Source: a virus
DNA: 64,000 nucleotides
Virus genome (UHGV): UHGV-1366603
Strand: one strand, 5' to 3'
Both the position numbers and the translations under genes were made by a program. This document shows, piece by piece, positions 1 to 64,000 of the stretch. Numbering within the stretch: position 1 is the stretch's first letter; every line of letters begins with the position of its first letter. The notes beneath the pieces are model-generated. The model saw only the letters and a program-made list of their open reading frames with translations, did not search any database and was not told the origin of the DNA.

Positions 1-1
1 A

Positions 2-478
2 ATGGAAACCAGCCCGTTCTATCTGCTGCGTAACTCGTCGTATATGAACATGGGTGTCCACCTGACGATTGAGTTGTTCCGTGTGACTGCGCTGATTGCC
101 CAAGCTGCCATTCCGATTCTTCCGGTTATCTCTGTTACGTTCGGCATGATTCTGAACGACCCAGATAACACCATCTACGATCCGCCGCAGGAACGTTTTG
201 AAGCGATGCGCCGTACGCTGGTAGAAGAACTGAATACCATCAAAGACAAAAACACGAAAGCGGCTAACGAGCAACGTAAACGTATTCTGGATGGTATCGC
301 GGTAATTGACCGTATTCTCCTTACGGTTAAAGACAAAGATAACCTGTATCAGTTTATCTGGAAGACGCTGACACCGAAAGGGCGTCGTGACCGTGCTGCG
401 GTGGATTATCAGCGCGCTATCGGGAAGTATATGTCGAATGACCTCCGTATCGCTTCTGCCATGTTTAACGTCGATTAA
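2..478 (+). CDS. hypothetical protein, 5'-truncated at window edge
   Basis: Open frame from window start to stop at 476-478; next gene follows with RBS at 493. Confidence 0.6.
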   Translation: METSPFYLLRNSSYMNMGVHLTIELFRVTALIAQAAIPILPVISVTFGMILNDPDNTIYDPPQERFEAMRRTLVEELNTIKDKNTKAANEQRKRILDGIAVIDRILLTVKDKDNLYQFIWKTLTPKGRRDRAAVDYQRAIGKYMSNDLRIASAMFNVD

Positions 479-492
479 GTAAAGGTAAAACC

Positions 493-936
493 ATGACGCA
501 TAAAGTTTCTCTGAATTCGTTAGTTCTGGATTTTAAACGTGCTAACGAAGGTAAAGGTGTTCAGGCGCAGCGTGCCCTGACTGGCCTGGTTGCATTCTCG
601 CTGGCGTATAATGCTGATATGCCGGACAACGGACCGTATGGTTCTAACGAAGTTTCACAAATCAAACTTCGACCACTGATGAAAAACGTGGTATCCGACG
701 TTAACGAGCTTTACTGCGTTGACTTAGGCACTATTGAAGATCTGACCGTTGCGTTGTTCTGTAACCGTTACGACAGCGCCTGGGGTGGACGTCGTGCAAT
801 TGAAAACTTCTCCGTACGTGAGATTTTCAACGAAGCCTTAGGTGATGACGTTTGGAACACCGTCAACCTGTGGCTGGAACGTTTTGTCGACGCAGTGAAA
901 TTCTACATGGATGAAACGCGAGGCAAATTATCATGA
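493..936 (+). CDS. hypothetical protein
   Basis: 147-aa ORF, AAAGG RBS upstream, stop overlaps next start (ATGA). Confidence 0.7.
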   Translation: MTHKVSLNSLVLDFKRANEGKGVQAQRALTGLVAFSLAYNADMPDNGPYGSNEVSQIKLRPLMKNVVSDVNELYCVDLGTIEDLTVALFCNRYDSAWGGRRAIENFSVREIFNEALGDDVWNTVNLWLERFVDAVKFYMDETRGKLS

Positions 937-2657: not shown

Positions 2658-5612
2658 TTAGTCTGCGGTGGTGTCGTGACGGTTGTAAACGATAACAACA
2701 TCGTCTTTCAGACCGATGTCACCGCTGGCTTCAATATCCAGTTTCTTACCAATCGTTGCGCGTGCAGCTTCGGATACCACAGTAAACAGACGCATGTCTT
2801 TGTCTGGCCCCATCGCATCCAACTCAACGCCGATAATCGACGTGTCAAGCGTTTCGCTGAGCTTATTACCAATCTCTGTTGCCGAGATAGTAAGATGTGA
2901 ACCCAAGTAGTCGTTGATAACTTGAGACGTTTTCTTACGAATCTGCGTTAACAGATCGCTGTTGCTACGGTTAGCCGCTGTGAGGTAATAACGAACGGTA
3001 AACTGGTTTTCAGCCGGTATCGGTGTAACCACCCCGTCTTCGGTACGCGCATCGATATAACCCATCGTGGTGATAGGAACGAAATACCCTTCCGTACGCT
3101 CTAACAACATCGGTTTTAACGTCGGTAGAACCACGGTCACGTAGTTAACGATATTCTCAATAACCGCGTTCAGATAGGATTTCGCAGACGCTGTGGTAGC
3201 GAATTTATAACGTGCGTCGAAGACTGCCATTTCACTACGGAACTTAATAGAACGTGATTTCGCAATCTTAGGATTACCGTACTCGTCTTTTACTAAGTCC
3301 CCTTCGCGGTGCAGGATAATCTGCTGGCCGGTTTCGTCAAGCTTAGGATCGCCTTTACGGTGTTCATAAGTGATTTGTAGCGGTGGTGTACGGCCTGCGT
3401 CGTACGTGTAAACCGGAACCCCATTCTCATCACGTTTCACCACGTCAATTTCCCACGTTGCTAATACGTCTTTGTCGTAATACTCGTAGTTGATGCTGTC
3501 AGTAACAGCACGAGCTTTACGCCAATAGTACGTCATCGCTTTACCCAGTTCGATTTTGAATATCTCGTGGGTAATACCGATAGCGTCACGAGAAGGCGCT
3601 GTGATTAACGTATCCATCTCTACACGTTCGTAGTTCCCAGGGTAATAACCTGTGCAACCGTAGAACAGGTTAAAATCTGTCAACAGAGGAACGGGTGTTT
3701 CCGTTGGGTTACTTCCGTTAATGCGCGTGTTGGTGAGTACCAGTTCGTCGTTACGGTCAACGTCCAGGTTAGTTTCCAGCAAGAACTCCCAAACACGTTC
3801 GCTGCCCTGCTTACCGACTAACGTACCGTTAATGTACGCCAAGGTGTTATCGGAATTACGAGGGCGGAAAGACAGCTGTGCAAAGACTTGGTCATCAGTC
3901 AGTGCCTGGTAAGGTGCTTCTGACTTCGTAACCGTACGCAACACATAACCTGCTTCCGTTTTCTCGATAGTGTAGTCAGCGGTAACGACGCTGAGCTCCG
4001 TCGAGACGTTGGTCGCAATAAAGCGTTTGGAGTTTAATAGCGGTTTATCCAACTGGTAAATACGCACGTCAATCGCTTTGTTGTTAATATCAACAACGTA
4101 ATGGAACGGTGTAAACAAATAACGGTTCGTGTTTGCTGCGTTAATCAGGTCTTCCTTACGCATGGTCTTCGCTAACACCGTCATTTCGGCATCTACAGTC
4201 AGACTGGTATCCGTAAAGCGATACAGCGTATCAGGAAGAATGGTCAGGCGATTACCGTTGACTTTCACTGTCGGAAGATTAACCAGCTCGTTCCAGGAGA
4301 AATAGAACGGGGCAGTAATCGTACCAATCGGTGAACTGACGTTAGCAATTGTCGATTCCAACATCGGTGCTGTCATGAAGTACGTACGACTGGTCACGTA
4401 GTCGTTAGGTTTAGACAACGTGAGACCGTAATCGGAAACCGTAGCTTCAAGCTGCTTTTCTGTCACAGGCAGTTTACGAGCACCTACGGCGTTGTTAACA
4501 ACGCGAGTACGTAAATCGCTGAACGAAAGCTGACTACGACCACCCGACAGCATCTTCCCAGCTTTTGCTGCAAGCTGTTTAATAGAGAACGCTTTAATCG
4601 GGTTGATATAGTTCGCGTCGTACTCTTCGTTTAAATCGCGTAGACTGAAACTATACTCATCAGACGGGTATGCAGAGATGTCCAGCTCCAACGGCCCTAA
4701 GGTCGTATAGACGTCCATCCTGATAGTCCCACTGACGAGATTCTTCGCCATGTAAATAGATGGAATCGTACAACGGATGTTACCGTTACCCACCTGAATC
4801 AATGCTGTTGGTGTGTTCGGGTCGTAAACATCGCGACTGTGGGTGTGCTGAATCTCTACCCACTTGTTGCTACCCGTTGCCTTCATCCAAACACGAACGT
4901 AGAAGAATTTGTTAGTGTAAGCACGGGTCATGACGAAAGTATTGTTACCTTCGACGGTGTTACTTTCTTCTTTCACCGCATACTGCATAACCGGGATATG
5001 AATAGCCAGCAGCTGTGACGACGTTGTGTTAGTGGACGTTAGTTCCCATTCCAGTGCGTTCGTGGAAACTGGTGAAATCGGTGATTGTGTTTCAGTAATC
5101 CACAGTACCTGGAAAGCCGGGTTCTCGTTCGTTCCGTATGGAAGTACACGGATTTCAATTGGATATTGAATAGCAAACGTGTAACCAGAAACCGTAAAGA
5201 CCGTGTCACGTGGGATAACGACTTTACGAACCCCCGCGATTTGCAACGGATACGCTTTCGAGATTAAGCTGTCAACGTCAATTAACAGTAACAGTTCTGT
5301 AGTAGCAGGCTGCGCAAAGACGTCAACGTAATCCACGTCTGACATGTGTCGGAACAGGTCATCGTACGTCTGTGCCATTGACGGGAACGTTTTAGGAATA
5401 GATTCCTGGAGCCCCATCAACGTCGCGTGCCCCATCATTGTTCCCATTTCTGCCAAATAAACGACAGGGTCGGTAGGGTCACGGAGATAAATCTGACCAT
5501 CGGCATCTTCAACATCTTGAAGCTGGTTTAGCAGCATTGTCTGCATCGCCGCAGGGTTGTGTGCGAACAGCAGAAGTTTCTTTGCCAAAGTATCGTAAGT
5601 TGTTGAACTCAT
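2658..5612 (-). CDS. hypothetical large protein (984 aa), probable structural protein
   Basis: Long minus-strand ORF; start overlaps stop of upstream minus gene at 5612. Confidence 0.8.
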   Translation of the reverse strand: MSSTTYDTLAKKLLLFAHNPAAMQTMLLNQLQDVEDADGQIYLRDPTDPVVYLAEMGTMMGHATLMGLQESIPKTFPSMAQTYDDLFRHMSDVDYVDVFAQPATTELLLLIDVDSLISKAYPLQIAGVRKVVIPRDTVFTVSGYTFAIQYPIEIRVLPYGTNENPAFQVLWITETQSPISPVSTNALEWELTSTNTTSSQLLAIHIPVMQYAVKEESNTVEGNNTFVMTRAYTNKFFYVRVWMKATGSNKWVEIQHTHSRDVYDPNTPTALIQVGNGNIRCTIPSIYMAKNLVSGTIRMDVYTTLGPLELDISAYPSDEYSFSLRDLNEEYDANYINPIKAFSIKQLAAKAGKMLSGGRSQLSFSDLRTRVVNNAVGARKLPVTEKQLEATVSDYGLTLSKPNDYVTSRTYFMTAPMLESTIANVSSPIGTITAPFYFSWNELVNLPTVKVNGNRLTILPDTLYRFTDTSLTVDAEMTVLAKTMRKEDLINAANTNRYLFTPFHYVVDINNKAIDVRIYQLDKPLLNSKRFIATNVSTELSVVTADYTIEKTEAGYVLRTVTKSEAPYQALTDDQVFAQLSFRPRNSDNTLAYINGTLVGKQGSERVWEFLLETNLDVDRNDELVLTNTRINGSNPTETPVPLLTDFNLFYGCTGYYPGNYERVEMDTLITAPSRDAIGITHEIFKIELGKAMTYYWRKARAVTDSINYEYYDKDVLATWEIDVVKRDENGVPVYTYDAGRTPPLQITYEHRKGDPKLDETGQQIILHREGDLVKDEYGNPKIAKSRSIKFRSEMAVFDARYKFATTASAKSYLNAVIENIVNYVTVVLPTLKPMLLERTEGYFVPITTMGYIDARTEDGVVTPIPAENQFTVRYYLTAANRSNSDLLTQIRKKTSQVINDYLGSHLTISATEIGNKLSETLDTSIIGVELDAMGPDKDMRLFTVVSEAARATIGKKLDIEASGDIGLKDDVVIVYNRHDTTAD

Positions 5613-6916
5613 CAGTTAGTACCTGCCTCTGTAACAAGACCATTGACGCTGTCAAGTAATCCTGCTTTCTTGAGAATATATTGATAGTCTGCTTGGTAGA
5701 CATACCAGGTAAGCTTGCGCCGTACGGAATCGATATGTGGATAGCCGTAATAGTTAAATAAAGGCAATAACTGTGGCGCGATAGGAACAAGTTGGCTGCT
5801 GGCCATCGGGATAAAATTCCCCGAAGCGACTGAGCCGGGCTGCGGGAGCATATCTGGGTTAAACATCCCAACAGTTTTATTGAACATCTCCATGTAAAGC
5901 GGATCGTTAAACCGTGCCCCGATTGCTTGCCAGTTGATGTTAATCGTCACGTCGTCATTTAACTGCGGCTTTGAGTTATCGACGTTCGCCATTTGACCCG
6001 CGTTATCGTTCATCGGCCAGGCTACACAAATTGTCCAGAAACGGGTAATGTTCCCTAACGCATCGTAACGTAGACCGTAGATACGTGACTGGTAATCAAT
6101 GCGTCGTTGAATGGAGTTGCGCATCTTCGGACGGAACTTACCCATCTTAATACCCGCCATATACTCCAACCACACACCCATCATTCTCATTAACGGGTCA
6201 CCGTAGGGGTTGTTTAGGGACATTGACACAGAGAACGCGTTGTTGATTTCGTGCGTAGAATCAACCATACCCCACTGTTCGCGCATCAAGCCTTCACTGG
6301 CCATCCAGTTATCGACGGACTGATCGGGTGTTCCGCTTAAACTGATCAGCTGCGTACTGAGTATTGGTATGAACGCTTGTAGATTATCGAATCTTACCTG
6401 CGGCATAAACGGAGTACCTAAGCGGTTTCTTCGTATCCCCGTTTTGCTCTCAACAGGTGAGTCCGAAAACCCTAATTCGAAATCAGGGTCGAGAGCAGCA
6501 AGTATCGAATAATCTAAAGAGTCCTTCGGCTGCAATGCCATGTTTGACATTTTACGCGACTTGGCAATGTTGTCGTAGCACAGGTTGAAATCGGGCCGGG
6601 TAATAAATGTTAGACCACCGTATTCTCGGTTGATTGGCGTGGGGTTAGACGCCATCATATGGTTGAACCCCATGTAGGGGTTGGTCAAACGCTGCGCAGC
6701 AAGACCCAAACCTACAGTAAGGCGGATACGATCGTTCCATGCCGTAAGTTCGGTGTTTGCATCGTAAGGTGTTGCCGGATTGTTGTTGCTGAGTCGGTTA
6801 TTAAAATACCCGGCAACAGAAGGCACCGCGTCCGCGTTATTCGGATTGTGGAGAGAATCGTCGTAATCAGTATTCGGGTCATACCCCGGATCGTTCTTAT
6901 CTGTCTCGTCACTCAT
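5612..6916 (-). CDS. hypothetical protein (434 aa)
   Basis: Minus-strand ORF, GGAG RBS in palindrome AACTCCGGAGTT upstream of start at 6916. Confidence 0.75.
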   Translation of the reverse strand: MSDETDKNDPGYDPNTDYDDSLHNPNNADAVPSVAGYFNNRLSNNNPATPYDANTELTAWNDRIRLTVGLGLAAQRLTNPYMGFNHMMASNPTPINREYGGLTFITRPDFNLCYDNIAKSRKMSNMALQPKDSLDYSILAALDPDFELGFSDSPVESKTGIRRNRLGTPFMPQVRFDNLQAFIPILSTQLISLSGTPDQSVDNWMASEGLMREQWGMVDSTHEINNAFSVSMSLNNPYGDPLMRMMGVWLEYMAGIKMGKFRPKMRNSIQRRIDYQSRIYGLRYDALGNITRFWTICVAWPMNDNAGQMANVDNSKPQLNDDVTININWQAIGARFNDPLYMEMFNKTVGMFNPDMLPQPGSVASGNFIPMASSQLVPIAPQLLPLFNYYGYPHIDSVRRKLTWYVYQADYQYILKKAGLLDSVNGLVTEAGTN

Positions 6917-6942: not shown

Positions 6943-8049
6943 ATGTTAGAAAAAACGTTTGAGACAAGCGTTGTCTCTTTCCTCTCCAGACTTCCCATGC
7001 TGTTTCGTTCGCGTGCGGAGTCGATGGAGGAATTTAACTCCGTGCTCTATAATGAGCACATTACCTTAGTCGAACAAAGCCTGCTGGGTTTAGATTACCT
7101 TCCGGGAATTCTGGAGAAAATCCAAGTTTTGCTGGCAGGAAACCAACTTACTGCAATCTCACTGTTAACGGGTGTGCCTGACGTTGATATTATCGGTACG
7201 CTGGATCAAGTAAGCACTCGTCGTAGCGCACTCGATAACGCAGTGCGGAGCGGCTCACGCTTAGCAGCACTGGCAGTCGGCGAATCTTCCCGCCTAGGAT
7301 TACCATCATACGATAAAATCGGCATTGCTGTGGGTGAATGCGCCCGCCGTGTCGCACAGGAATCCAAAGGTTCCGTTACCGGCGGTAAAGCAGACCCGAT
7401 TAAACAACTGTTCGATCAGGAAGGACTGTCTAACGGGAAAATGTTCTCTGTAACGTTTGAACGTGACGGTAATAAAGTCGAACTTCCAATGCGTTTACGT
7501 TTGGACGTTAAGTCCCTTCCGACCGACCAGATTGAAACTCTGATTGCATTCAGCGACCAGACGAAAACGTTCTGGGAACGTTGGCTGCGTGCACGTGTAG
7601 GTGCACTGAGCTACGTTAAAGACATTGCGTTTTGTAACGACCTGGTAGAAGAATACCGTAAGAACCGTTATCGCGATAAGTCAGGCTACTATCGTAAGAT
7701 GATGGAGAAGAAAAACGGTAACTGGCTGTCTGGCTTGCTGACGCTGGCACCGTCTATTAATAACGCTTCTTCTGTCATGGTGGTTTCTCAAGACACTATC
7801 GACGGTCTGACTGCCCAGCTAGGCGGTGAGTTTGACGATTTCAATATTCGTCAGCGTGTCTTTAAAGACACCTTAACCGTCTATTACGTGGTAGTGGATA
7901 CCGCGTGGAACCGCGTTACTATTTATACTCGCGGTCAGAACGGTTCTCAGGAACTTGATAAATCCGATTTCAGCAAAGCGAAGTCCGGTAGCGCCGATGT
8001 GAACAAAATCATTGAAGCGTATCGCTCTGGCGCACAGCCAGTTCTTTAA
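6943..8049 (+). CDS. hypothetical protein (368 aa)
   Basis: ORF diverging from 5612..6916 with 26-bp spacer. Confidence 0.75.
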   Translation: MLEKTFETSVVSFLSRLPMLFRSRAESMEEFNSVLYNEHITLVEQSLLGLDYLPGILEKIQVLLAGNQLTAISLLTGVPDVDIIGTLDQVSTRRSALDNAVRSGSRLAALAVGESSRLGLPSYDKIGIAVGECARRVAQESKGSVTGGKADPIKQLFDQEGLSNGKMFSVTFERDGNKVELPMRLRLDVKSLPTDQIETLIAFSDQTKTFWERWLRARVGALSYVKDIAFCNDLVEEYRKNRYRDKSGYYRKMMEKKNGNWLSGLLTLAPSINNASSVMVVSQDTIDGLTAQLGGEFDDFNIRQRVFKDTLTVYYVVVDTAWNRVTIYTRGQNGSQELDKSDFSKAKSGSADVNKIIEAYRSGAQPVL

Positions 8050-8059
8050 GGGGTAAGGC

Positions 8060-8995
8060 ATGGCATTCCCGAATATGCTCGCTATGTTGTTGCCGAGCTT
8101 TGAAGCAACAAACTTGAAAAATCAGCTTTCGTCCAACTGCGATGCAATTGGCGAACAACTTTTACCACGTTTCCAGTCTTTACAAGAACTGGTAGCGTCG
8201 AAAGAAGGCAAACCGTTTAAATCGAAAACGGTACAAGAAATATCCGATGAAGTGGTTAACTACCTGCGGACTTCCGGTCTGGAAGCCAAAGGTCTCCGCA
8301 ATCCATCGATGTTAGAGTACATCGTTTCCTCGATGGAAAACGTGTTGCAGTTGCGTTCTTTCTTAGACCAATGTATTGCGCGTGACATTGGTAAATCGTT
8401 AGTCACGTCTTCAATGACGTTTAATAAATTAACGGTGCTCAGACTGCTTGACCTGATTGATTTCTTCACAGGTTACAGTGCTACGTTACTTAACTACGTT
8501 ACCGCAGAAGAGATTGCCGCTGTCGAAGGCTCGAATATTGAAGTGAAGGGCATCGGTCCGAATGACCTTCAATACCTCAATACTCGTTCGGTCTCTTACT
8601 GCATCGCCATCCGTGTTTTGGCAACGCCGGTAAATAAACTGAAAGCGGATTATGCCGAAATCCCAGAAGCGATTTTCAACGACGAAACTTACGGTGAGTT
8701 GGTTCAGCAGTTCGGTTCGGGCTCGACTGACCCGCTGGGAATGAGCAGTGTACCGTTCCCGATCTCATTGGTACTTCGCGTTCGTTTGAATATTGCTGAA
8801 AGGCAGATGGATAAATACGACGAGTGCGTAGAAGCAGCGAAAGCTGCGGAGTTGCGTATCCTGCTTTACAAAAAGCAAGTAGCGGAAGGTAAGGGAGATG
8901 CGCACATCGAAAAACTCATCGAGCTAAGTGAAAAGCATCTGTTGGAACTCAAGCATAAGCGTGAGCGTCTTGAGAAGAAATACGGTTTAGTGTAA
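8060..8995 (+). CDS. hypothetical protein (311 aa)
   Basis: ORF with AAGGGG RBS, 10 bp after previous stop. Confidence 0.75.
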   Translation: MAFPNMLAMLLPSFEATNLKNQLSSNCDAIGEQLLPRFQSLQELVASKEGKPFKSKTVQEISDEVVNYLRTSGLEAKGLRNPSMLEYIVSSMENVLQLRSFLDQCIARDIGKSLVTSSMTFNKLTVLRLLDLIDFFTGYSATLLNYVTAEEIAAVEGSNIEVKGIGPNDLQYLNTRSVSYCIAIRVLATPVNKLKADYAEIPEAIFNDETYGELVQQFGSGSTDPLGMSSVPFPISLVLRVRLNIAERQMDKYDECVEAAKAAELRILLYKKQVAEGKGDAHIEKLIELSEKHLLELKHKRERLEKKYGLV

Positions 8996-9012
8996 ACCGT
9001 TAGGAGAGCCTC

Positions 9013-9573
9013 ATGTTTGAGCACGATAGTCCCGATTTTAATGTGGCTGTAGAGCGCATTAAAACCTATATGTCGATTTTATCAAAAAACCCAATCGACA
9101 CACACGATGACGAGCTTATTCACAAAACGCTGGAAGCGTGTGCGGTTGTATTACCGTACTTTCGTCTGTTAGCTGCTGACTCTGTGCAGCAGGTATTATA
9201 TGACGAATATCCGCAGGTCGGATTTACCTTTAATACGTTTTATAACGAAAGCGTAGCCTTCCTGCTTGATGGTAAACGACGCACTGTGACGTTAGGACAG
9301 TGGTCCGTATTGCTGTCGTCGTACATGAATGATGTTCGCAATACGAAGAACGTTGAACAGACGGGCTCATTGGGTGCACGTCTTCTTGCTGCTGCGTTTG
9401 GTCGCCGGGGTACTGTACGTAATATGGGTTCCGCTCACCAGTCTGTTGAGTGTAGCAAACGTCTTTTATCTTATGCAGACCATGAACTGCTGGCACGCTG
9501 GATGACACGCCCGAACGGGTTGTCCGACATGATCTCGTCGTTAGCAGTGTTTTTGAAAATCGCACGTCCCTAA
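9013..9573 (+). CDS. hypothetical protein (186 aa)
   Basis: ORF with TAGGAGAG RBS. Confidence 0.75.
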   Translation: MFEHDSPDFNVAVERIKTYMSILSKNPIDTHDDELIHKTLEACAVVLPYFRLLAADSVQQVLYDEYPQVGFTFNTFYNESVAFLLDGKRRTVTLGQWSVLLSSYMNDVRNTKNVEQTGSLGARLLAAAFGRRGTVRNMGSAHQSVECSKRLLSYADHELLARWMTRPNGLSDMISSLAVFLKIARP

Positions 9574-9632: not shown

Positions 9633-10904
9633 ATGGCAAATTTCGCAAAAACTCGCGCCGCTCGTGAATCAATGGAAGCGGCCGATGAAGTAATCGACGG
9701 TATCAGCAACGTTGAACCGGCAGAAGAGAACCTGGACGTCCAGCTTGCGGACGTTGCATCTATCGACGGTCAGCTCGAACAGCTGGAAACCGACGGTGAA
9801 ACCCTGGCTGCCGATACCGAGCGTACTGAAGACGCTATCGAACAGGCGGAAGAAGCCGTTGCTAACGGTGAAGAAATGCCGGAAGAAGCGGTTGCCCTGC
9901 ATGAAGTGGCACAGGAATCCATCGCACGTCGTTGGAACCTGGAGCGTACTAAACTGGCTCGCGAATCCTATCGCCGTGGCCGTGGCATGACTGCTGCTGC
10001 GCAGGAAGGCTGGAAAGAAACCCTGAAAGGTCTTTACGAGCGTTTCATTCAGTTCTGTAAAGAAGTAATTGCGAAGATCAAAGACCTGAAACTGAAATAT
10101 TTCAACGTCGGTAAGACCGCACAGAAACGTGCGAAGAAATATCAGGAAATGATCCGCAAGCTGGGCAAACAAGATAAAGACAACATTTCTGGCGGCTTTA
10201 TCACCAAACTGTCCATCGAAGGTAAATTCGATGCTGCTGGCTCTATTGCCATTGCTAAAGAAGTGACCGCAGGTAAAGCTAAAGGTGCTATCAGTGCACT
10301 GGAAAAACAAGCTGGTGAAGCTGTGACTGCTGTTACCAAAGGTGACGATGACGCATTCAAAGCGATGCGTGGTGATCAGCCGGTTGAACTGTTTGGTAAA
10401 GCAGCGTCTAAACTGCATTCTCTGCCGAACTTTGAAAACGGCGATGCGTCTAAACTGCTGGCTCTGCCGGGCAACGCTTACGTTCAGGCTGGTACTAAAG
10501 AACTGGCTGGCGGCCACAAGTTCACCGCAATTGCGTTCATGAGCACCGGTGACGCTTCTGACGATAAAGAAGTGGCTACTCCGTCTGTTTCCGAAATGGC
10601 TGGCGCGGCATCTGCTCTGGAAGCGATCGGTAAAGGCTTCGAAGCTGTACTGAAAGATTTCCGTGCTTACGATTCTGAAATCGTGAAACTGCAACAGGCT
10701 GCTGAAAAAGCGTCCAACGCGCTGAACAACGAAAAAGACGAAAGTAAGTGGGAAGGACTGCGTAATGCACGTCAGGCCGCTGATCAGTCTGTGAAGAACT
10801 ACCAGACCCTGAACCGTGCCGTTAGCTATGTTGCTAACACCGTTATTAGCGGTCTGAACGGTTACCTGGGTGCTGGTATCGGCGCGTACAAAAAGTCTAA
10901 ATAA
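9633..10904 (+). CDS. abundant acidic-N-terminus protein, paralog A (423 aa); candidate head internal/scaffold-like virion protein
   Basis: Starts MANFAKTRAARESMEA, same as downstream paralog; strongly host-optimised codons (ctg/cgt/ggt/aac); long antisense shadow ORF. Confidence 0.85.
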   Translation: MANFAKTRAARESMEAADEVIDGISNVEPAEENLDVQLADVASIDGQLEQLETDGETLAADTERTEDAIEQAEEAVANGEEMPEEAVALHEVAQESIARRWNLERTKLARESYRRGRGMTAAAQEGWKETLKGLYERFIQFCKEVIAKIKDLKLKYFNVGKTAQKRAKKYQEMIRKLGKQDKDNISGGFITKLSIEGKFDAAGSIAIAKEVTAGKAKGAISALEKQAGEAVTAVTKGDDDAFKAMRGDQPVELFGKAASKLHSLPNFENGDASKLLALPGNAYVQAGTKELAGGHKFTAIAFMSTGDASDDKEVATPSVSEMAGAASALEAIGKGFEAVLKDFRAYDSEIVKLQQAAEKASNALNNEKDESKWEGLRNARQAADQSVKNYQTLNRAVSYVANTVISGLNGYLGAGIGAYKKSK

Positions 10905-10943: not shown

Positions 10944-10962
10944 GGGGAACGACGTGTTCCCC
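10944..10962 (+). other. intergenic hairpin GGGGAAC-GACGTG-TTCCCC between paralogs (weak terminator/processing site)
   Basis: Stem-loop seen in sequence; no strong T-run. Confidence 0.3.
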
Positions 10963-10980
10963 TTAGAGGAAAAGCTTAAA

Positions 10981-12243: not shown

Positions 12244-12260
12244 TCTCTGATTGTTTAGTA

Positions 12261-12308
12261 GGAGAACCACCCTGTAATGGGGTGGTTCTCCCTTTTCTTT
12301 TTTTTTTC
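12261..12308 (+). terminator. intrinsic terminator
   Basis: GGAGAACCACCC-TGTAAT-GGGGTGGTTCTCC hairpin followed by long T-run. Confidence 0.9.
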
Positions 12309-12322
12309 GCATTAAAAATAAT

Positions 12323-12352
12323 CTCAGATAGATATTACCTTAGTGAGATTAC
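12323..12352 (+). promoter_or_regulatory. promoter-like motif copy 1 (CTCAGATAGATATTACCTTAGTGAGATTAC)
   Basis: 30-mer identical to 47177-47206; lies after terminator and 46 nt upstream of ATG. Confidence 0.55.
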
Positions 12353-12398: not shown

Positions 12399-13040
12399 AT
12401 GACACGTTACAATTTAGCCGACTTCTGCGATTGTGCCTTTTCTGTTGAAGGTGACAAACTTGTAATGGCTGCGCCAAACGCAAGAGTTTTATCGTTGTAT
12501 CAAGCCGAAGTTATTGCAATTTCGATTTGGTTGGCAAGGGCTATAGACGGCGGCTGTAAGGACCTTGATAAAGAAGTGTTGAAAGTCGGTCGTCGTGAAT
12601 TTGTGTATAAAGCAGAAATCCAGAACCGTTTACCAAAGACCTTTTTAAGCAGCTTGCTTAAAGATGTCAACACCCCAGTTGTCAGCCGAACATTTGACGG
12701 GGTGAAATATTACTCTTTTGAAGATTCGCACGTTGCTATCTGTGAAGGTGAGAATAAGTTTTTTACGACCGTTATCTACTTTCGTATTGCTGAACCTACG
12801 AAAGAAGAACTGGTTTGCAATACTGCGAACGATGTGGCCGTGATGCGTATGGACGATATCACCAGTGAACTATCTGGATTAAATGACATACCGCGTATTG
12901 TGGAGCGAGTCTTGGAAGGAGACGATTACTTTAAGTTGCTTCCGCTGGTAGCAAGCGAAGAAACAGAACAGGAAAGCGCTTTCATTCAGGTTAACCTTAC
13001 CGCTGCACAGGCGGTGGATCGTTTCTTCGAAGCTTTATAA
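12399..13040 (+). CDS. hypothetical protein (213 aa)
   Basis: ORF with TAGGAGAAT RBS downstream of promoter-like motif. Confidence 0.8.
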   Translation: MTRYNLADFCDCAFSVEGDKLVMAAPNARVLSLYQAEVIAISIWLARAIDGGCKDLDKEVLKVGRREFVYKAEIQNRLPKTFLSSLLKDVNTPVVSRTFDGVKYYSFEDSHVAICEGENKFFTTVIYFRIAEPTKEELVCNTANDVAVMRMDDITSELSGLNDIPRIVERVLEGDDYFKLLPLVASEETEQESAFIQVNLTAAQAVDRFFEAL

Positions 13041-13044
13041 TCAG

Positions 13045-17720: not shown

Positions 17721-17721
17721 T

Positions 17722-52217: not shown

Positions 52218-52248
52218 AGATATATTTCATCTATGTGAGAATTCTCAC
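52218..52248 (+). promoter_or_regulatory. promoter-like element with perfect 14-bp palindrome GTGAGAATTCTCAC (52235-52248)
   Basis: AGATATAT… then TGTGAGAATTCTCAC; 24 nt upstream of ATG 52272. Confidence 0.45.
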
Positions 52249-53606: not shown

Positions 53607-53650
53607 CTTTTTACGAATGCAGCTATTTTAATGATTAGGAGAATATAGAG

Positions 53651-54046
53651 ATGACAGCAATACTAGGTGTAATGGCAAGAAAAGCCGACATCGTTGAAAC
53701 GTTTATTGAACAATACAACAACTCGCCGTATACGCGTTTTAGATTACATAAACCGAAGAATAGTACAGAATGGGTTCGTTGGTTCAGGATTTGGGATAAA
53801 ACAATAAGTAAAATTGATCCGTTATTTAGAATAACGGTTGAACCAGCTTATTGGATTGTAATGGAAATTTCGCTATTACGTATTATCGAAAAACGTCCGA
53901 TTGACACTATGACGATGTTTGGGAAAGATACGTATAAAATGTTGACCAACGGTTTTGTGGGTAATGGGGAACACACGTTGTATCAAGCGATGCTGGAAAT
54001 GTGTTTGTTCGATTTAGTTACTTACGAATTGGGGATTTCAAAATGA
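53651..54046 (+). CDS. hypothetical protein (131 aa)
   Basis: TAGGAGAAT RBS. Confidence 0.7.
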   Translation: MTAILGVMARKADIVETFIEQYNNSPYTRFRLHKPKNSTEWVRWFRIWDKTISKIDPLFRITVEPAYWIVMEISLLRIIEKRPIDTMTMFGKDTYKMLTNGFVGNGEHTLYQAMLEMCLFDLVTYELGISK

Positions 54047-58093: not shown

Positions 58094-61000
58094 ATGAGAA
58101 AACATTTTCAGCGTCACGCGATTAGCTACGCGTTATCGTTAGCTTACGGACACCAATCCTTCGTTACCCGGAATACGGGAACGACTCACGACGCGCACAA
58201 CGAACACTATATTCAAAACGAAGAAGGTGTTCTGTCGAATAACCGTCATTTCATTGCTGACACTATGGCGGAATACCAACCGAACGGGGACGCGACGACC
58301 GAGGGTCAGTCGTTACACGTTATTGGTTACTGCCACATGTATATCGCAACGAAAGACGAAAGATGGTTAGATGCGGCGAAACACGCCTGGGATGCGTACA
58401 ACACGTACTTCTACGTCGGACAACCTATTCCGACCACACCCCAGCGTCGGATTTGTAACTGGTTGGTAAACGGGAAAGAACCGGTATTAGCACATTACCC
58501 AATACACCCTACAGAACCTACCCAAGGTGGGTATAAAAGCGTCCCTGTAAGGTTTACAAACGGACAGTGTAAAATACCGCATGGTGCACCGTTCTGGGGA
58601 GAGTATTTGGATACCTTTACGTTTGCGCATCGTGGTCACCCTGCCTGGGAAGCCATTAACGCAGACGTACAGATTATTAAGGAAGACAAAGAAGGGTCAA
58701 TTAATTGGGAAGACGTTTTAACTCACGTTATTACCAATCCTGATAAACCCTACGAGGCCAAAGCCTGGGTTGATTGGCCTACGTTATTAAACAACGCTAC
58801 AGGGTACACCCCGCTTTGGGGTGGCAGTGCAACAAAAGCCCCTAAACACGACGTTGACTGGATAATTGCCTGGACAGGTAACAAAATCCAGGATAGTGAG
58901 ATTATTGAGACAGGATTAGCAGACGCTGATAAAGGTACCGTACAGTTAAAAGACACGCAGTTAAACGGTGTCTATTTGATTAACTACGCGGTAAAACTGC
59001 CTGTCGAACACGGGGGTTACGAGTTTAAACGTAACGAACCGTGGCACAACCGTCCAGTTCACACGCCGTTCTTAGGATCGAAAAACCAATACGGTAACGC
59101 CGCTGATGCTGAACTGTGGTTTATTGACGCCTGTTATTTGCTGTGGCGAATCACGGGTGAAGAGAAATACAAACAAGCATTAGACTGTGCTTTCTACACA
59201 GCACACGAGTACACGTATATTGATGCGGTAGATAAATTCTTCCGTCGTTCTACCGCTGCGGAAACACCGTTTACGGATGGTATTTCGTACGACTTCAATT
59301 ACCCGGACACCGTAAGTGCTACCTACGGCCGTGATGAGAATGGGGATATTACCATCCATGTGCCTGAAGCGGCACAACACTTTATGGAGCAGAAAGCGGT
59401 TCGATTCAGGATTAACAAAGACTCCAAACTACGTGTCACGTACGGCGGGGTTTGTAAGAACGGTGATCCTGTCTACTGTAAAGCAATGGTAAACATTAAC
59501 CCTGTGAAAGCCGACACCGAGGAAGTAAACTGGTACGGCTTAACCTTACCTCAGTCTACGGTAAATACCGTTAAGCAGTACGATATTGACTTAGGCCAAC
59601 TTGCCCGTATCACCACCCCAGAAGGAGAAGACTACCTGATAGCCGACGCCCGTGCGTGTTCGGACTATGGTGGTTGTACGTGGGAAGAACGTTTTGAGAA
59701 CAGCATTTACGACGGTCGCGCGGGTACCGTTATAGAAGCTGAATTTCCTGATGACGGTGCCGGGTTTATTATCGGGTTCTGGTTAACCGCTGAAGAGAAG
59801 GTAAAACCGGTTTCTATTGTCTACCGTGCGGACGCAGATTTTAACCTGCGTTTAGTCGACAGTGATAACTGGCGTTGGTGGTGGATGTTACCCAACACAA
59901 ACAACGAATGGCGTCAGGTAACGTTGAATCCGGATGATGCCACACTTTCCGGTTATCAGCCAGACCACACAGACGACGACCCTAAACCGGCAGCACCGAA
60001 TTTCGATAAGGTGGATCAGGTCACGATTCTCCCTGACTCTACGGTTGACCATGCACATTTTGCCTACTATTGTGTTAACGATGTTCCACCGCTCTTTAAT
60101 AAAGACGACGGTTATATTCTCACCTTCCGTATTGGGTTACGCGGCGGTGGAGAGTATGATGCGAAGGTCGGCGACTGTACGATCAAAGATTACCGATTGG
60201 ATTCGTTAGCGTATTGTCCGGGTACGATACCGTTCTCGAACAACTATTCAGAAGGTTCAGAACAGTTAGGTGCCTGGCACGGGATGCCTTATCCGGGTTA
60301 TCAGTATCCGTTTATGTACACTATCCACAAAGACGACCGGTATAAGCTGTGGTTAGATAACCAGATTCAATTCTTGTACGATTCGCAGTTGGCTTACCAA
60401 CGGCAACTCGGTGAATTAGGGCCCGGTTGTGCAGCGTATATCTGGAACCGTTGGGACAACTACAGCTACGGAGAAGCAGATACCTGGACAACGTTCCATT
60501 GGGGCGACGACCATCCGTGGGCAGGGTATCAACCTCGTGCGTTTCATGCTGCGTGTCGGTGCTGGTACGAACTGAAACTAAGAGGTAAAGAGATTCCTGA
60601 GGCGTTAACAAGCTATATTGAAAACTGGGTGAATTGGCTAGGTGGGTTTGTGGATCGGTTTAACGGACACACCCCTAACGAGTTCCCTACAGCACCTGAT
60701 AAACCCGTTTGGGTGGAAGATGACTTCACCGCACATATGTGTGCGTTGTGGTTAGCAGGCTGTTGTTGGGCATTACTCGCTGGTGCAACTAATCCGAACT
60801 ACGATAAGGTAGTTAATGCGGCAATTAAGGAGTTAGGTGAAGGGTTTACGATTACCTCAATTCCGAATAAGCCGATTAACGGGGCGTGGTCTCCAGCCGC
60901 TCGAGAGTCTTCCGATAACGGAATGGCTTTTGGGTTCTACAGTGGGGAAGCGTTCCGTGCGTTAGGTCTCTACGTTACTTACAAAACCTACGGAGCCAAC

Positions 61001-61099
61001 GCTAATATTTATCGTGACTTAGCGATTGCTGACCACAGTCAAGCGGTCTTAGACGTTACGTTAACGATAGAAGACGATGCATTAAAACCAGAGCAATAA
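58094..61099 (+). CDS. large tail spike/fibre-associated protein (1001 aa), possible polysaccharide-degrading domain
   Basis: ORF starting directly after anchor-domain gene; large aromatic-rich protein next to tail fibre. Confidence 0.75.
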   Translation: MRKHFQRHAISYALSLAYGHQSFVTRNTGTTHDAHNEHYIQNEEGVLSNNRHFIADTMAEYQPNGDATTEGQSLHVIGYCHMYIATKDERWLDAAKHAWDAYNTYFYVGQPIPTTPQRRICNWLVNGKEPVLAHYPIHPTEPTQGGYKSVPVRFTNGQCKIPHGAPFWGEYLDTFTFAHRGHPAWEAINADVQIIKEDKEGSINWEDVLTHVITNPDKPYEAKAWVDWPTLLNNATGYTPLWGGSATKAPKHDVDWIIAWTGNKIQDSEIIETGLADADKGTVQLKDTQLNGVYLINYAVKLPVEHGGYEFKRNEPWHNRPVHTPFLGSKNQYGNAADAELWFIDACYLLWRITGEEKYKQALDCAFYTAHEYTYIDAVDKFFRRSTAAETPFTDGISYDFNYPDTVSATYGRDENGDITIHVPEAAQHFMEQKAVRFRINKDSKLRVTYGGVCKNGDPVYCKAMVNINPVKADTEEVNWYGLTLPQSTVNTVKQYDIDLGQLARITTPEGEDYLIADARACSDYGGCTWEERFENSIYDGRAGTVIEAEFPDDGAGFIIGFWLTAEEKVKPVSIVYRADADFNLRLVDSDNWRWWWMLPNTNNEWRQVTLNPDDATLSGYQPDHTDDDPKPAAPNFDKVDQVTILPDSTVDHAHFAYYCVNDVPPLFNKDDGYILTFRIGLRGGGEYDAKVGDCTIKDYRLDSLAYCPGTIPFSNNYSEGSEQLGAWHGMPYPGYQYPFMYTIHKDDRYKLWLDNQIQFLYDSQLAYQRQLGELGPGCAAYIWNRWDNYSYGEADTWTTFHWGDDHPWAGYQPRAFHAACRCWYELKLRGKEIPEALTSYIENWVNWLGGFVDRFNGHTPNEFPTAPDKPVWVEDDFTAHMCALWLAGCCWALLAGATNPNYDKVVNAAIKELGEGFTITSIPNKPINGAWSPAARESSDNGMAFGFYSGEAFRALGLYVTYKTYGANANIYRDLAIADHSQAVLDVTLTIEDDALKPEQ

Positions 61100-61121
61100 T
61101 AACCCGCTTATAAAAAATATT

Positions 61122-61150
61122 GGGGGGGGGTAAGCTACTCCCCCGATCTT
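61122..61150 (+). other. G9 homopolymer tract plus weak hairpin (possible weak terminator)
   Basis: TGGGGGGGGG TAAGCTACT CCCCC then GATCTTT. Confidence 0.3.
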
Positions 61151-61176
61151 TAGCTCCCGATAGAGAACTTAATATC

Positions 61177-64000
61177 ATGGCGAAAGCGGTAAAGAAAATA
61201 CGATTGCATAATCTTAGGCCGTATACCGGTGATATCGGTGAAGGCGTTTTACTTTTCTCCAAGGATGAGAAAGATTATAAGTTACCAGTCCGTGAGGTTA
61301 TTGCAGATATTGACACCGTACGTAATGCGGTGGCTGATGCACAAACAGCAGCAGCGCAATCACAAGAAGCTGCAACTCAGGCTACACAAGCAAAGAATTT
61401 AGCAGAAACAGCAAAACAACAAACTGACACCGTTGCGGCTACGGTTGCTCAACAAGCACAAACCGTAACAGAAAAAGCAACGGAAGTCGGTACAAAACAC
61501 ACTGAAGTGTTAGCCGCGAAAACGGCGGTAGATACCCAGGTTGTGTCCGTTAATGAGAAAGCGCAAGCGGTAGCGGCAAGTGAGGCCAACGTCACGCAAG
61601 CAGAGACTACTGTTACGAAGAAAGCAGAAGCCGTTGCGACACAAGCCGGTCAAGTTGAACAGTCTCTTACGGCAGTTAACGAAGCTGTCGCGTCGGTAGA
61701 GTCGTCAAAAGCCTCTGTAGAAGCTACAGCAACGCAAGTTACCTCGGACAAAGAAACCGCAGAGAATGCGGCAACCCGTTCTGAGGCAGCCGCTAAGCGA
61801 GCAGAAGAAATTGTTGCACAAGGTACTGTTGATGCAACAACGTCCAGTAAAGGTATCGTTAAACTTAATAATACCTTAACCAGTGACTCGGTTACTGAAG
61901 CTGCTACTCCGTCAACGGTTAAGCAGTTAAATGATGATTTGCAGTTAAAAGCAAACCGTCACAACCCAACCTTTACCGGTACGGTAAAAGCACCAACCCC
62001 TGCTGCGGATTCTAACGACACGAGTGTCTCAACGACTGCATGGGTACGACAAGCGATTGCTGAATTAGTGGACTCTTCTCCCGAGACGTTAGATACGTTA
62101 TCAGAAATTGCAGCCGCGTTAGGAAACGATCCTAACTTTGCGACAACGATAACGAATCAGCTCGCGGGTAAACAGCCGTTAAGTCCGTTACTGACAGCGA
62201 TTGCCGCAGTCACCACCGCTGCAAACAAACTCCCTTACTTTACCGGTAGTAATCAGGTAGGGTTAGCGGATTTCACCTCGACCGCACGCGATTTATTAGC
62301 AAAAGGGTCGACGGCCGATATCATTAGCTTCCTGGGTTTGAAAACTACCGTCGATAAAGCTGCGGGGGCGATGCAGCGCAATTCTAATGGTGCAGATATT
62401 CCTGACAAAGCCACCTTCGCGAAGAATATTGGATTGTCAGCAGAGACGTATCTGAAGTTTAATGGGGAGATGGCAGTAGATGCAGATATCAACACCTTCG
62501 GCCCAGTCGAAGCGTTTATGGGTGTTTGGTCTAAAGCCACGTCTACGAATGCAACAATTGCAAAGAACTTCCCGGAAGATGATGCAGTTGGTTACTTAGA
62601 AGTATTCAAAGCAGGTAACTACAGCGGAAGTCAACGTTTTACCATACGTAACGGTAACGTCTATACTCGTCGTTTAACAGGAACCTGGAACGGTACTAAC
62701 GGCCCTTGGTCACCCTGGAGAATGACAACCACCGCGAACCGTCCGCTCTCTACCACTATTGACCTTAACACCTTAGGTGGTGTTGAACACATGGGTCAGT
62801 GGCGTAACTCCAGTTCTTCTCTTGCGACGTTCGATCGTCATTATCCCGAAGAAGGTGGTAATGCTCAAGGTGTGTTAGAAGTAATGGAAGGTGGTCTCTA
62901 CGGACGTATGCAACGTTACACCACTCGTCGTGGTACGATGTATATCCGTGGGTTGACTGCGACTTGGGATGCGTCTAATCCGCAGTGGGAAGACTGGATT
63001 CAAGTTGGGTATCAGGTAGACGGTGCCTACTATAAGGGTAGCTTTAATAACTTAACTAAACCCGGTCGTTTTAGTGTTACCGGTGAGGCTACTGACGGAC
63101 CGTTAACAGGGCCTTCTGGTGAAACTTTGTTAGGTGTCTGTGAAGTCACCCTGCGCTTAGACGGTGTAGGTGTCGAACAAAATTACACCACTTACGGTAC
63201 AGGTGCTATTTATAAAGGTCGTAAGTTCCATCGTATCCGTACGGGGAATGTCTGGAGCGAGTGGCGTGAAGTTTATACGTCTAGTTCATTAGCGATGCTT
63301 TTAGGAATCGGTGGAGTTGCAGCTAAGGTCGATCCGTTGGACTGGCAAACCTACGACTTCGTTCCTGGACAGATGTTAACGACACCGTTGAACACCATGA
63401 AAAACATTCCTGCGGGAATGGATTGGGGTGTGATCAACGGTAACTTAGTTAACATCCTTGTAGGTCCGTCTGACGACACTGGTACCGGCCGCAGTATGCT
63501 GGTTTGGCGTAGCACGGTGTCTACTGCCAACTATCGCTTCTTTGCGGTACGTATCGCCGGTGAGAAGGGTAGTCGTACGATTACACCACGCCAGATGCCT
63601 GTATTGAACGCAGCGCACACCTGGGCAGAGAAACAGACCTTTGCAAAAGGGTTAGCAGGTGAGTTAACAGGCAATGCTTCAACCGCCACTAAATTAAAGA
63701 CGGCACGTAGAATTGGTGGGGTCGCCTTCGACGGTAGCGGCGATGTTAACCTCCCAGGTGTTAACCAACAAGGTAATCAAAACACCACGGGTAACGCCGC
63801 GACAGCCACTAAACTTCAAACTGCCAGAAATATTAACGGTGTGAGATTCGATGGTTCTGCTGACATCAATATCAACACCCTGGTGGGTCGTGGTCGGGTT
63901 ACCGCTCTAACCGGTTCAAACAAAGGTACACCTGGTATTCAAATGTACGAAGTTTACAATAACGGTTATCCAACCGCTTATGGTAACTTACTGCATTTGG
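61177..64000 (+). CDS. tail fibre protein, 3'-truncated at window edge
   Basis: Not in ORF track (no stop in window); Ala/Thr/Gln-rich coiled-coil, SSKGIVKLNN…ATPSTVKQLND and NPTFTGTVKAPTPAADSNDTSVSTTAWVRQAI tail-fibre motifs, two tail-fibre repeats near 63673-63870. Confidence 0.85.
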   Translation, partial: MAKAVKKIRLHNLRPYTGDIGEGVLLFSKDEKDYKLPVREVIADIDTVRNAVADAQTAAAQSQEAATQATQAKNLAETAKQQTDTVAATVAQQAQTVTEKATEVGTKHTEVLAAKTAVDTQVVSVNEKAQAVAASEANVTQAETTVTKKAEAVATQAGQVEQSLTAVNEAVASVESSKASVEATATQVTSDKETAENAATRSEAAAKRAEEIVAQGTVDATTSSKGIVKLNNTLTSDSVTEAATPSTVKQLNDDLQLKANRHNPTFTGTVKAPTPAADSNDTSVSTTAWVRQAIAELVDSSPETLDTLSEIAAALGNDPNFATTITNQLAGKQPLSPLLTAIAAVTTAANKLPYFTGSNQVGLADFTSTARDLLAKGSTADIISFLGLKTTVDKAAGAMQRNSNGADIPDKATFAKNIGLSAETYLKFNGEMAVDADINTFGPVEAFMGVWSKATSTNATIAKNFPEDDAVGYLEVFKAGNYSGSQRFTIRNGNVYTRRLTGTWNGTNGPWSPWRMTTTANRPLSTTIDLNTLGGVEHMGQWRNSSSSLATFDRHYPEEGGNAQGVLEVMEGGLYGRMQRYTTRRGTMYIRGLTATWDASNPQWEDWIQVGYQVDGAYYKGSFNNLTKPGRFSVTGEATDGPLTGPSGETLLGVCEVTLRLDGVGVEQNYTTYGTGAIYKGRKFHRIRTGNVWSEWREVYTSSSLAMLLGIGGVAAKVDPLDWQTYDFVPGQMLTTPLNTMKNIPAGMDWGVINGNLVNILVGPSDDTGTGRSMLVWRSTVSTANYRFFAVRIAGEKGSRTITPRQMPVLNAAHTWAEKQTFAKGLAGELTGNASTATKLKTARRIGGVAFDGSGDVNLPGVNQQGNQNTTGNAATATKLQTARNINGVRFDGSADININTLVGRGRVTALTGSNKGTPGIQMYEVYNNGYPTAYGNLLHL
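63673..63870 (+). repeat. two tandem phage tail-fibre repeats (protein level)
   Basis: NASTATKLKTARRIGGVAFDGSGDVNL and NAATATKLQTARNINGVRFDGSADINI. Confidence 0.7.

Follow-up and report, generated by a model that had tools for sequence, protein, structure and literature searches.

The window, a 64,000-nucleotide stretch of viral DNA with a GC content of 45.9%, very probably belongs to an uncultivated chimallivirus of about 223.3 kb that infects Enterobacteriaceae and falls within the PhuZ-less SPN3US/Asesino clade ('phuzzywuzzyviruses'). An earlier note had called it a phiKZ-like jumbo phage of an enterobacterium, and this lineage call was right because the window is a 64-kb part of a nucleus-forming jumbo phage of the SPN3US/Asesino type, roughly 223 kb in size, from gut enterobacteria. 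The best matches are all jumbo chimalliviruses (of Erwinia, Salmonella, Escherichia, Cronobacter, and Proteus), and all of the 72–73 phage records matched lie in the SPN3US/Asesino group. The note had named two outcomes that would speak against its call; no best match is a non-jumbo phage, nor is the genome one of under 200 kb without shell or virion RNAP genes. Sequence comparison, through the nearest relatives and the missing PhuZ, places the phage in the SPN3US/Asesino clade and indicates that phiKZ itself is not a close relative.

The window corresponds to bases 32,001–96,000 of a human-gut metagenome contig, and four assemblies of a single human-gut sample contain it at 100% identity. The contigs from these four assemblies are 223,355, 223,419, and 223,427 bp long and differ in their break points; subtracting 55, 119, or 127 for the k-mer overlap yields 223,300 bp every time, from which we infer a circular map. 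These lengths, like those of the relatives (221,873–225,279 bp), exceed the 200 kb that defines a jumbo phage. Searches of the window for tRNA genes and Rfam families found none. In RefSeq, E. coli 98232 and Enterobacter ludwigii 51A:C have near-identical (96–98%) circular records that are labeled as plasmids. NZ_CP173450.1, a circular record of 221,873 bp from an E. coli urine isolate, aligns with 62,017 of the 64,000 bp of the window at 96.3% identity, and the E. ludwigii "plasmid" is 98.1% identical over a 15-kb stretch (window positions 22,000–37,000).

Taken at face value, the labels on these near-identical circular records would make the replicon a genuine plasmid or phage-plasmid, a reading to which we give almost no credence. 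The records are full of virion, portal, sheath, terminase, RNAP, and chimallin genes, while the PGAP tables (including that of NZ_CP173450.1) hold no product names for a replication initiator, partition protein, integrase, or relaxase, insofar as annotation names tell, and PLSDB, which shows no replicon or relaxase type for the Enterobacter record, classes it as non-mobilizable; a plasmid would be expected to have genes for replication, partition, or transfer. Moreover, an earlier study (bioRxiv 10.1101/2024.12.31.630880) described virulent 'Seoul-like' jumbo phages that persist in assemblies of isolates. The window phage is like them in having 96–98% identical extra circular replicons in E. 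coli/Enterobacter isolates, although the 'Seoul-like' phages were found in bacterial genome assemblies and the window comes from a gut metagenome. Co-assembly with isolates suggests E. coli, Salmonella, and Enterobacter as hosts. For annotators, several RefSeq entries of about 222 kb, filed as "plasmids" from E. coli/Enterobacter, are chimallivirus genomes.

Read as part of a chimallivirus genome, the window begins among virion genes. Its start truncates a gene (2–478, + strand) for the C-terminal part of a virion protein homologous to SPN3US gp45 and phiKZ gp84 (65–67% identity to SPN3US gp45 and Asesino gp62; 26% to phiKZ gp84), which is followed by a fast-evolving SPN3US gp47-like protein (933–2606, +; 43% identity; phrog_8131, 1.5e-153). 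On the − strand, sequence comparison identifies a large virion structural protein homologous to SPN3US gp48 and phiKZ gp87 (2658–5612; 77–82% identity to SPN3US/Asesino; 30% to phiKZ gp87, E 1.7e-149), and adjoining it is a virion protein homologous to SPN3US gp49 and phiKZ gp88 (5612–6916) with a precomputed Pfam match to Phage_TTP_15. Three head-protein genes, homologues of phiKZ gp89, gp90, and gp91 (6943–9573, +), precede two internal head proteins of the phiKZ_IP family (9633–10904, +; PF12699, 6.6e-74; and 10954–12243, +, gene-caller start 10981; PF12699, 3.9e-59), which are 35% identical to each other (E 1.8e-54) and bear out the paralogous proteins noticed earlier. Further along lie a virion and neck gene block with homologues of phiKZ gp98, gp99, and gp101 (14861–19580, +; precomputed head-tail joining Pfam matches) and a homologue of SPN3US gp74 (23938–24462, +), which by gene order occupies the position of phiKZ gp119 and had no sequence match in phiKZ.

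The capsid-sized protein of roughly 750 aa that had been singled out is the product of a 761-aa ORF (24475–26760, +), a phiKZ-type major capsid protein (PhiKZ_MCP, PF25620, 1.3e-207) with 78–80% identity to SPN3US gp75 and Asesino gp91. The comparison with phiKZ gp120 that the note had proposed gives 24% identity (E 6e-39), and the protein also has PDB matches among capsid proteins of jumbo phages with solved structures. The acidic-tailed portal candidate likewise held up: the 905-aa ORF (32139–34856, −) matches phiKZ gp129 (PDB 9xpe, PHIKZ129, 12 chains; E 1e-42), and its final 80 residues contain 31 D/E and no K/R. Next to it are a head protein homologous to phiKZ gp128 and SPN3US gp82 (34868–37051, +; 29% identity to phiKZ gp128, E 4.7e-82) and homologues of phiKZ gp139 and gp140 (37579–39110, +). 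The phiKZ-type capsid, portal, and internal head proteins of the Chimalliviridae are thus all present (PF25620, PDB 9xpe, and PF12699 twice). At the other end of the window, a tail protein homologous to SPN3US gp124 (58094–61099, +; 72% identity; phrog_2871 'tail protein') is followed by a T-even/lambda-style tail fibre (PF03406), of which the window holds residues 1–941 of 1488 (61177–64000, +; gene end near 65643); the complete gene on the window's contig carries Gp34_trimer and Peptidase_S74 domains. Upstream of the tail fibre, a G9 run (61122) was dropped from consideration, as the E. coli record lacks a counterpart.

SPN3US (Salmonella, Seoulvirus) gp45–gp124 is the colinear counterpart of the window and, together with Asesino (Erwinia phage vB_EamM_Asesino, Erskinevirus, PhuZ-less), shows about 75% nucleotide and 43–84% protein identity to it; for SPN3US, protein identity is 78% for the capsid gp75, 73% for the portal gp81, 71% for gp77, and 72% for the tail protein gp124. 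However, intergenomic similarity to SPN3US is 44% across the window, the stretch from 45 to 58 kb is far more diverged and includes several genes without an SPN3US homologue, and gp124 is followed by small genes in SPN3US and by the long tail-fibre gene in the window phage. Asesino is colinear from gp62 on, with 43–84% protein identity, and shares with the window phage the promoter-like motif described below, a chimallin (58% identical, read on the near-identical genome), and the lack of PhuZ. It differs in its intergenomic similarity (about 54%, computed on the window's first 44.8 kb), in genome size (246 kb vs. about 223 kb), and in origin, as Asesino comes from Erwinia amylovora and the window phage lineage from gut, urine, and cloacal enterobacteria; the window phage also differs in its accessory genes and carries a tail-fibre and Gp38 module of the T-even type.

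Since SPN3US and Asesino are the top isolate matches and both are colinear with the window, the phage might be taken as a member of Seoulvirus or Erskinevirus and not as a separate lineage, which we consider unlikely. The ICTV guideline for a genus is at least 70% nucleotide similarity across the genome. VIRIDIC-style similarity, computed on the window part of the genome, is 0.44 to SPN3US; restricted to the first 44.8 kb, it rises to 0.53, with 0.54 for Asesino. These values all fall below the guideline; in the capsid gene, isolates reach at most about 82% identity.

The earlier note had also reported that no RNAP beta or beta-prime motif (NADFDGD) was seen in the window. This holds for the motif as such, but the statement misleads, because 27965–29740 (+) encodes a homologue of phiKZ gp123, a non-virion RNAP subunit (also SPN3US gp77 and Asesino gp94; PDB 7ogp_E, 1.9e-17; phrog_2943 'polymerase', 1.9e-170). 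A virion-RNAP subunit (phiKZ gp80-like, E 1.5e-43) lies 3–5 kb upstream of the window on its own contig. NZ_CP173450.1 encodes homologues of five phiKZ non-virion-RNAP proteins (gp71 and gp73 counted as one), one of which carries NADFDGD, as well as homologues of five SPN3US virion-RNAP proteins (gp42, gp218, gp240, gp241, and gp244). The two split RNAPs of the Chimalliviridae are therefore represented by one subunit each in the window or its contig and by full sets in the near-identical genome. The expectation that split RNAPs would lie outside the window was correct in that the 96%-identical genome encodes both, and incorrect for the one non-virion subunit inside it.

The TATATTAC-type promoter motif on which the lineage call had partly rested did not survive counting, as the window contains one exact copy (20585) vs. 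2.0 expected by chance. It was rejected as a promoter signal and replaced by a 13-mer obtained from reading the intergenic regions, where simple k-mer enrichment returned T-runs and ribosome-binding sites only. This motif, AGATA[GT]ATATTA[CT], has three exact and two degenerate sites in the window, with 5/5 on the + strand and 5/5 intergenic; by our own estimate about 0.01 exact copies would be expected. It occurs 9 times in the related genome and 11 times in SPN3US, each on one strand, and 130 kb of phiKZ contain no copy. The five early-promoter-like sites (all +) are AGATAGATATTAC at 12326–12338, preceded by an intrinsic terminator hairpin (together 12261–12338); AGATATATATTAC at 20580–20592, which contains the window's only exact TATATTAC; GGATAGATATTAT at 26832–26844, which with its terminator (26776–26844) heads an operon that includes the RNAP subunit gene; a second AGATAGATATTAC at 47180–47192, upstream of an XRE-type HTH regulator gene (47226–47612, +; the unit spanning 47180–47612); and the degenerate AGATATATTTCAT at 52218–52230. 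Intrinsic terminators are enriched, and sigma-70-like sites show no enrichment. In the form AGATA(G/T)ATATTAC, the motif is strand-specific, lies 3′ of terminators, and is conserved in Asesino and in SPN3US, where it stands 45–76 nt upstream of genes.

The core of the promoter overlaps with the phiKZ octamer TATATTAC, 17 copies of which lie in 130 kb of phiKZ, and the window phage shares with phiKZ (Pseudomonas, Phikzvirus) a family-level toolkit and the local order of the genes near the capsid and the portal (helicase, gp119, capsid, gp122, gp123, gp124, then portal, gp128). One could on these grounds see a canonical phiKZ-like phage that builds a PhuZ spindle and has TATATTAC as its early promoters, but that is most improbable. 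Protein identity to phiKZ is merely 21–30%, with no nucleotide similarity; exact TATATTAC stands at chance level, and the window phage's early-promoter consensus is extended and clade-specific. PhuZ, which the note had expected elsewhere in the genome, was not found in the 96%-identical complete genome with a single query (best E 2.6 by tblastn and 2.5 by phmmer --max), nor was a GG[GA][ST]G[ST] loop in its six frames, and PhuZ is reported missing from the whole SPN3US/Asesino clade (PMC11724907). The lack of a GGGTGSG tubulin motif in the window, also reported earlier, is not a valid probe, as phiKZ PhuZ itself reads GGASGST. From these searches, the window phage, a member of the SPN3US/Asesino clade, apparently lacks the PhuZ tubulin like the rest of that clade; phiKZ, by comparison, has PhuZ.

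Chimallin, in contrast to PhuZ, bears out the note's expectation of a gene outside the window: the 96%-identical complete NZ_CP173450.1 encodes it at 137326–139164. It was identified via the literature link to Asesino gp039, a GFP-verified chimallin (PMC11724907) to which it is 58% identical, and via a fold search, in which the AlphaFold model of a 99%-identical cluster representative had chimallins as its sole significant PDB matches (E 7e-22 to 1e-17; TM 0.6–0.7). A tblastn search with phiKZ chimallin gave no match in SPN3US, Asesino, the window, or the E. coli record. Neither PDB sequences, searched with a profile built from five SPN3US-like chimallins, nor Pfam yielded a match. The designation of SPN3US chimallin as 'gp244' (Laughlin et al.) was treated as a numbering mismatch and not relied on; GenBank-numbered SPN3US gp244 has 240 aa and is described as a C-terminal piece of virion RNAP beta′ (PMC7598289). 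The chimallin cluster at 90% identity numbers 337 members; Salmonella enterica and E. coli assemblies contribute many of them. As judged from the modeled fold, the nuclear-shell protein of the Chimalliviridae (ChmA) is encoded in this lineage; it and most RNAP subunits were read on 96–98% identical genomes and not on the window's contig; for chimallin, scans of IMG/VR and metagenomes and look-ups of clusters yielded sister strains only.

Formation of a nucleus during infection is known for the relatives Asesino and SPN3US (PMC11724907, PMC13282480), and the window phage may well follow the same phiKZ/Asesino paradigm. Packaged virion RNAP would transcribe early operons from AGATA(G/T)ATATTAC promoters, situated just 3′ of intrinsic terminators and 45–112 nt 5′ of start codons, and one of these operons would include the window's non-virion RNAP subunit gene. 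The non-virion RNAP would then express the middle and late genes within the chimallin shell, and a tubulin spindle would not be used.

The nucleotide-metabolism and accessory genes cited in support of the lineage call are also present. They comprise a dihydrofolate reductase (13949–14485, +; PF00186, 4e-47), a thymidylate kinase (46490–47134, +; PF02223, 2.5e-17), a divergent DnaB-like replicative helicase homologous to phiKZ gp118 (22362–23924, −; PF20307, 4.9e-126), a DprA-like recombination mediator (42524–43090, +; phrog_768, 2.6e-42), and three GNAT acetyltransferases, namely a weakly matching GNAT-like one (40430–40909, +), a second (44374–44841, +; PF00583, 8.8e-19), and a third encoded alongside a Dam-type (D12) DNA adenine methylase (48404–50198, +).

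A broader proposal, that an unnamed genus-level PhuZ-less chimallivirus is widespread in human and animal guts, persists in a plasmid-like carrier state in E. coli, Salmonella, and Enterobacter isolates, and owes its breadth across genera to the acquisition by swapping of a T-even-type tail-fibre/Gp38 adhesin cassette, is put forward only tentatively; its persistence part was essentially proposed before for 'Seoul-like' phages (bioRxiv 10.1101/2024.12.31.630880). The window phage is an ordinary addition to a well-described clade; its main value is a clean classification, and it raises no new biological question. With it, the PhuZ-less clade gains a gut-associated lineage, and a predicted, strand-specific early-promoter consensus for that clade is now concrete.

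The earlier note assigned this DNA to a phiKZ-like jumbo phage of an enterobacterium, an assignment that is right and now well grounded; its details on the promoter motif, the RNA polymerase (RNAP) fragment, and PhuZ (phage tubulin) need correction. A megablast comparison of the window with 50,697 phage records matched nothing but jumbo phages whose hosts are Erwinia, Salmonella, Escherichia, Cronobacter, or Proteus. The aligned part amounts to between one third and one half of the window, at ~75% nucleotide identity, and the top matches were Erwinia phage Asesino (Erskinevirus) and Salmonella phage SPN3US (Seoulvirus) with its relatives. Nucleotide matches are nearly nil across the last 19 kb. 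The proteins follow the order of SPN3US gp45-gp124 and of Asesino from gp62 on, at 43%-84% identity. Weak but significant homologues of phiKZ gp84, gp87-90, gp98, gp99, gp101, gp118 (helicase), gp120 (capsid protein), gp123, gp128, gp129 (portal), gp139, gp140, and gp151 are present, and phiKZ shares gene order with the window around the capsid and portal genes. Together with the chimallin and RNAP genes of a near-identical relative, these matches bear out the lineage call. In the phage collection, no isolate is more than ~82% identical, the capsid gene included. In a VIRIDIC-style similarity comparison, the window scores 0.44 against SPN3US, 0.54 against Asesino (first 44.8 kb), and 0.94 against the E. 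coli record NZ_CP173450.1. The guideline for a genus is 70% similarity. Because the SPN3US and Asesino values lie under it, the phage would fall outside both Seoulvirus and Erskinevirus, at least on this 64-kb segment. Two large, position-conserved genes, gp47-like (933-2606) and gp78-like (29780-31390), are 33-43% identical to their SPN3US/Asesino counterparts, while their neighbours are 70-84% identical, and for this reason both appear to be evolving locally fast.

According to exact-protein look-ups, the window is 100% identical to four assemblies of one human-gut sample (ERR636350/SAMEA2784449, PRJEB7369); by coordinates, it is bases 32,001-96,000 of JGI contig Ga0495776_011139. The assembled contigs measure 223,355, 223,419, and 223,427 bp, above 200 kb and in agreement with the proposed jumbo size; two contigs break within the window region, at differing places. 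Subtraction of a plausible, presumed k-mer overlap (55, 119, or 127) yields 223,300 bp in each case, which points to a circular assembly and hence to a complete genome of that length. The circular, complete E. coli record (221,873 bp), 96.3% identical to the window over the 62,017 bases (of 64,000) that align, is filed as "plasmid p98232-contig_4" of a urine isolate (98232). A second "plasmid", NZ_CP134650.1 of Enterobacter ludwigii 51A:C from a gull cloaca (222,441 bp), is 98.1% identical over a 15-kb window stretch. Each of the two plasmid-labelled RefSeq records is the complete genome of a phage in this jumbo lineage, sharing 96-98% identity with the window; PGAP annotates nearly all genes in them as hypothetical.

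The structural genes proposed from the sequence were recovered. The 761-aa ORF (24475-26760) is the major capsid protein: it matches Pfam PhiKZ_MCP (1.3e-207) as well as capsid proteins of jumbo phages with solved structures. On the minus strand, the 905-aa portal candidate (32139-34856) matches PHIKZ129 (1e-42), solved as a 12-chain structure, and another chain named portal protein, and its acidic tail holds 31 acidic and 0 basic residues in the last 80. The paralogous pair consists of two adjoining ~420-aa proteins, 35% identical, of the phiKZ internal-head-protein family. Antisense ORFs of 685 aa (24643-26700, minus) and 449 aa (10963-12312, minus) lie over the capsid gene and an internal-head-protein gene, respectively; both appear to be shadow ORFs, as conservation of their translations appears due only to the conserved sense genes.

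Chimallin, the nuclear-shell protein, had been predicted outside the window. The E. coli record, which also encodes a prohead protease, terminase, and tail sheath, carries a homologue of Asesino gp039 (58% identity), adjoining the NADFDGD-bearing gp55-like RNAP subunit; GFP-labelled, the Asesino protein forms a ring enclosing the phage DNA (PMC11724907). The AlphaFold model of the 99%-identical cluster representative of the E. coli record's protein (pLDDT 75, pTM 0.78) matches only the Goslar, 201phi2-1, and phiPA3 chimallins in the PDB (E 7e-22 to 1e-17, TM 0.6-0.7), the next hit following at E 0.16. PhuZ, also expected elsewhere in the genome, was not found in the E. coli record by tblastn with phiKZ PhuZ (best E 2.6), by phmmer --max on every ORF from 150 aa upwards (best E 2.5), or by a six-frame search for the nucleotide-binding loop GG[GA][ST]G[ST] (0 matches). 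The GGGTGSG probe used earlier is unable to detect phiKZ PhuZ, since that loop reads GGASGST. Prichard et al. report a whole chimallivirus clade to be PhuZ-less, including Asesino, which still forms a nucleus (PMC11724907); the PhuZ prediction therefore fails in an already known manner.

The split multisubunit RNAPs were likewise expected outside the window, and no RNAP motif had been seen inside it. The E. coli record does encode both sets: homologues of phiKZ gp68, gp71, gp73, gp74, and gp123 (non-virion) and of phiKZ gp80 and gp149 and SPN3US gp240, gp241, and gp244 (virion). On the window's own contig, a phiKZ gp80-like virion subunit (E 1.5e-43) lies within the 9 kb preceding the window. 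One piece, however, is inside: the 591-aa ORF at 27965-29740 matches PHIKZ123, chain E in the solved phiKZ non-virion RNAP structure, in two stretches (1.9e-17) and shares 71-76% identity with SPN3US gp77 and Asesino gp94. It was missed because this subunit does not carry NADFDGD, so the motif's absence stands and that of RNAP does not. In some strains of the phage, a group I intron (Rfam RF00028, 61 bits, E 1.7e-14; contig L035:13284-13596, also L031, L036-L038, L042, and L044; outside the window) splits the gp55-like non-virion RNAP gene, called as 499 + 83 aa; it is 535 aa and intact in other strains and the E. coli record.

The octamer TATATTAC, put forward as a promoter, occurs exactly once in the window (20585) vs. 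an average of 2.0 in shuffled sequence, and as stated is thus no evidence. Reading of the intergenic regions revealed a longer element, AGATA(G/T)ATATTAC, with an AT-rich stretch before it and (C)TTAG(G)TGAGA after it. Exact copies lie at 12326, 20580, and 47180, a copy with one mismatch at 26832 (heading the operon that holds the gp123-like gene), and one with two mismatches at 52218. Every one of the five is on the plus strand, 45-112 nt ahead of a start codon, and three directly follow a hairpin + T-run terminator. By our own calculation, ~0.01 exact matches are expected by chance (13-mer, two two-fold positions; 128 kb of two-strand sequence) vs. the 3 found. The near-identical complete genome has 9, on one strand only; SPN3US has 11 in 193 kb, plus strand only, 9 of them preceding annotated genes, such as the non-virion RNAP beta gene gp34, by 45-76 nt; Asesino has 4 in 49 kb; and the 130 kb of phiKZ searched has none. 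On these counts, the element is clade-specific. According to a review (PMC7598289), each RNAP-encoding jumbo phage has its own AT-rich ~10-nt motif with its centre near position -10 of early genes, which the virion RNAP is presumed to recognise; the element fits this description. Sigma-70-like sites are not enriched in the window (21 vs. 26 expected); terminators are (41 vs. 19.6 ± 4.4).

The mid-range GC (45.9%) and the many nucleotide-metabolism and accessory genes were confirmed, the latter comprising DHFR, thymidylate kinase, a Dam-type methylase, GNAT acetyltransferases, a DprA-like protein, an XRE regulator, and a divergent DnaB. Compared with the E. coli record, strain-variable islands lie at 12403-13047, 21716-22207, 53644-54039, and 62712-63252. 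The first is a 213-aa ORF (12399-13040) directly behind the early-promoter motif at 12326, without a Pfam or PHROG match; in SPN3US, an unrelated gene occupies this slot. The 1488-aa tail fibre (61177-64000, on to ~65643) has Phage_fiber_2, Gp34_trimer, and Peptidase_S74 domains, and its start codon is preceded by a 77-nt spacer containing a G9 homopolymer (61122-61130); the string flanking G9 is missing from the E. coli record, where G/C runs of 9-10 occur elsewhere. In the contigs extending beyond the window (L032/L033, 13084-18861), a 260-aa T2-type Gp38 adhesin and then a second Gp38_N protein follow. Whereas SPN3US has only small genes after gp124, this phage has a T-even-style host-recognition cassette after its gp124 homologue.

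The lineage is already present in databases and is not new there. Clustered at 90% identity, its chimallin falls in a group of 337 members, among them proteins from many Salmonella enterica serovars and from E. coli, and the phage recurs as 221-225 kb contigs across many gut metagenomes. A preprint (10.1101/2024.12.31.630880) already reports 299 virulent jumbo phages, termed "Seoul-like" and all encoding chimallin, that persist in bacterial assemblies.
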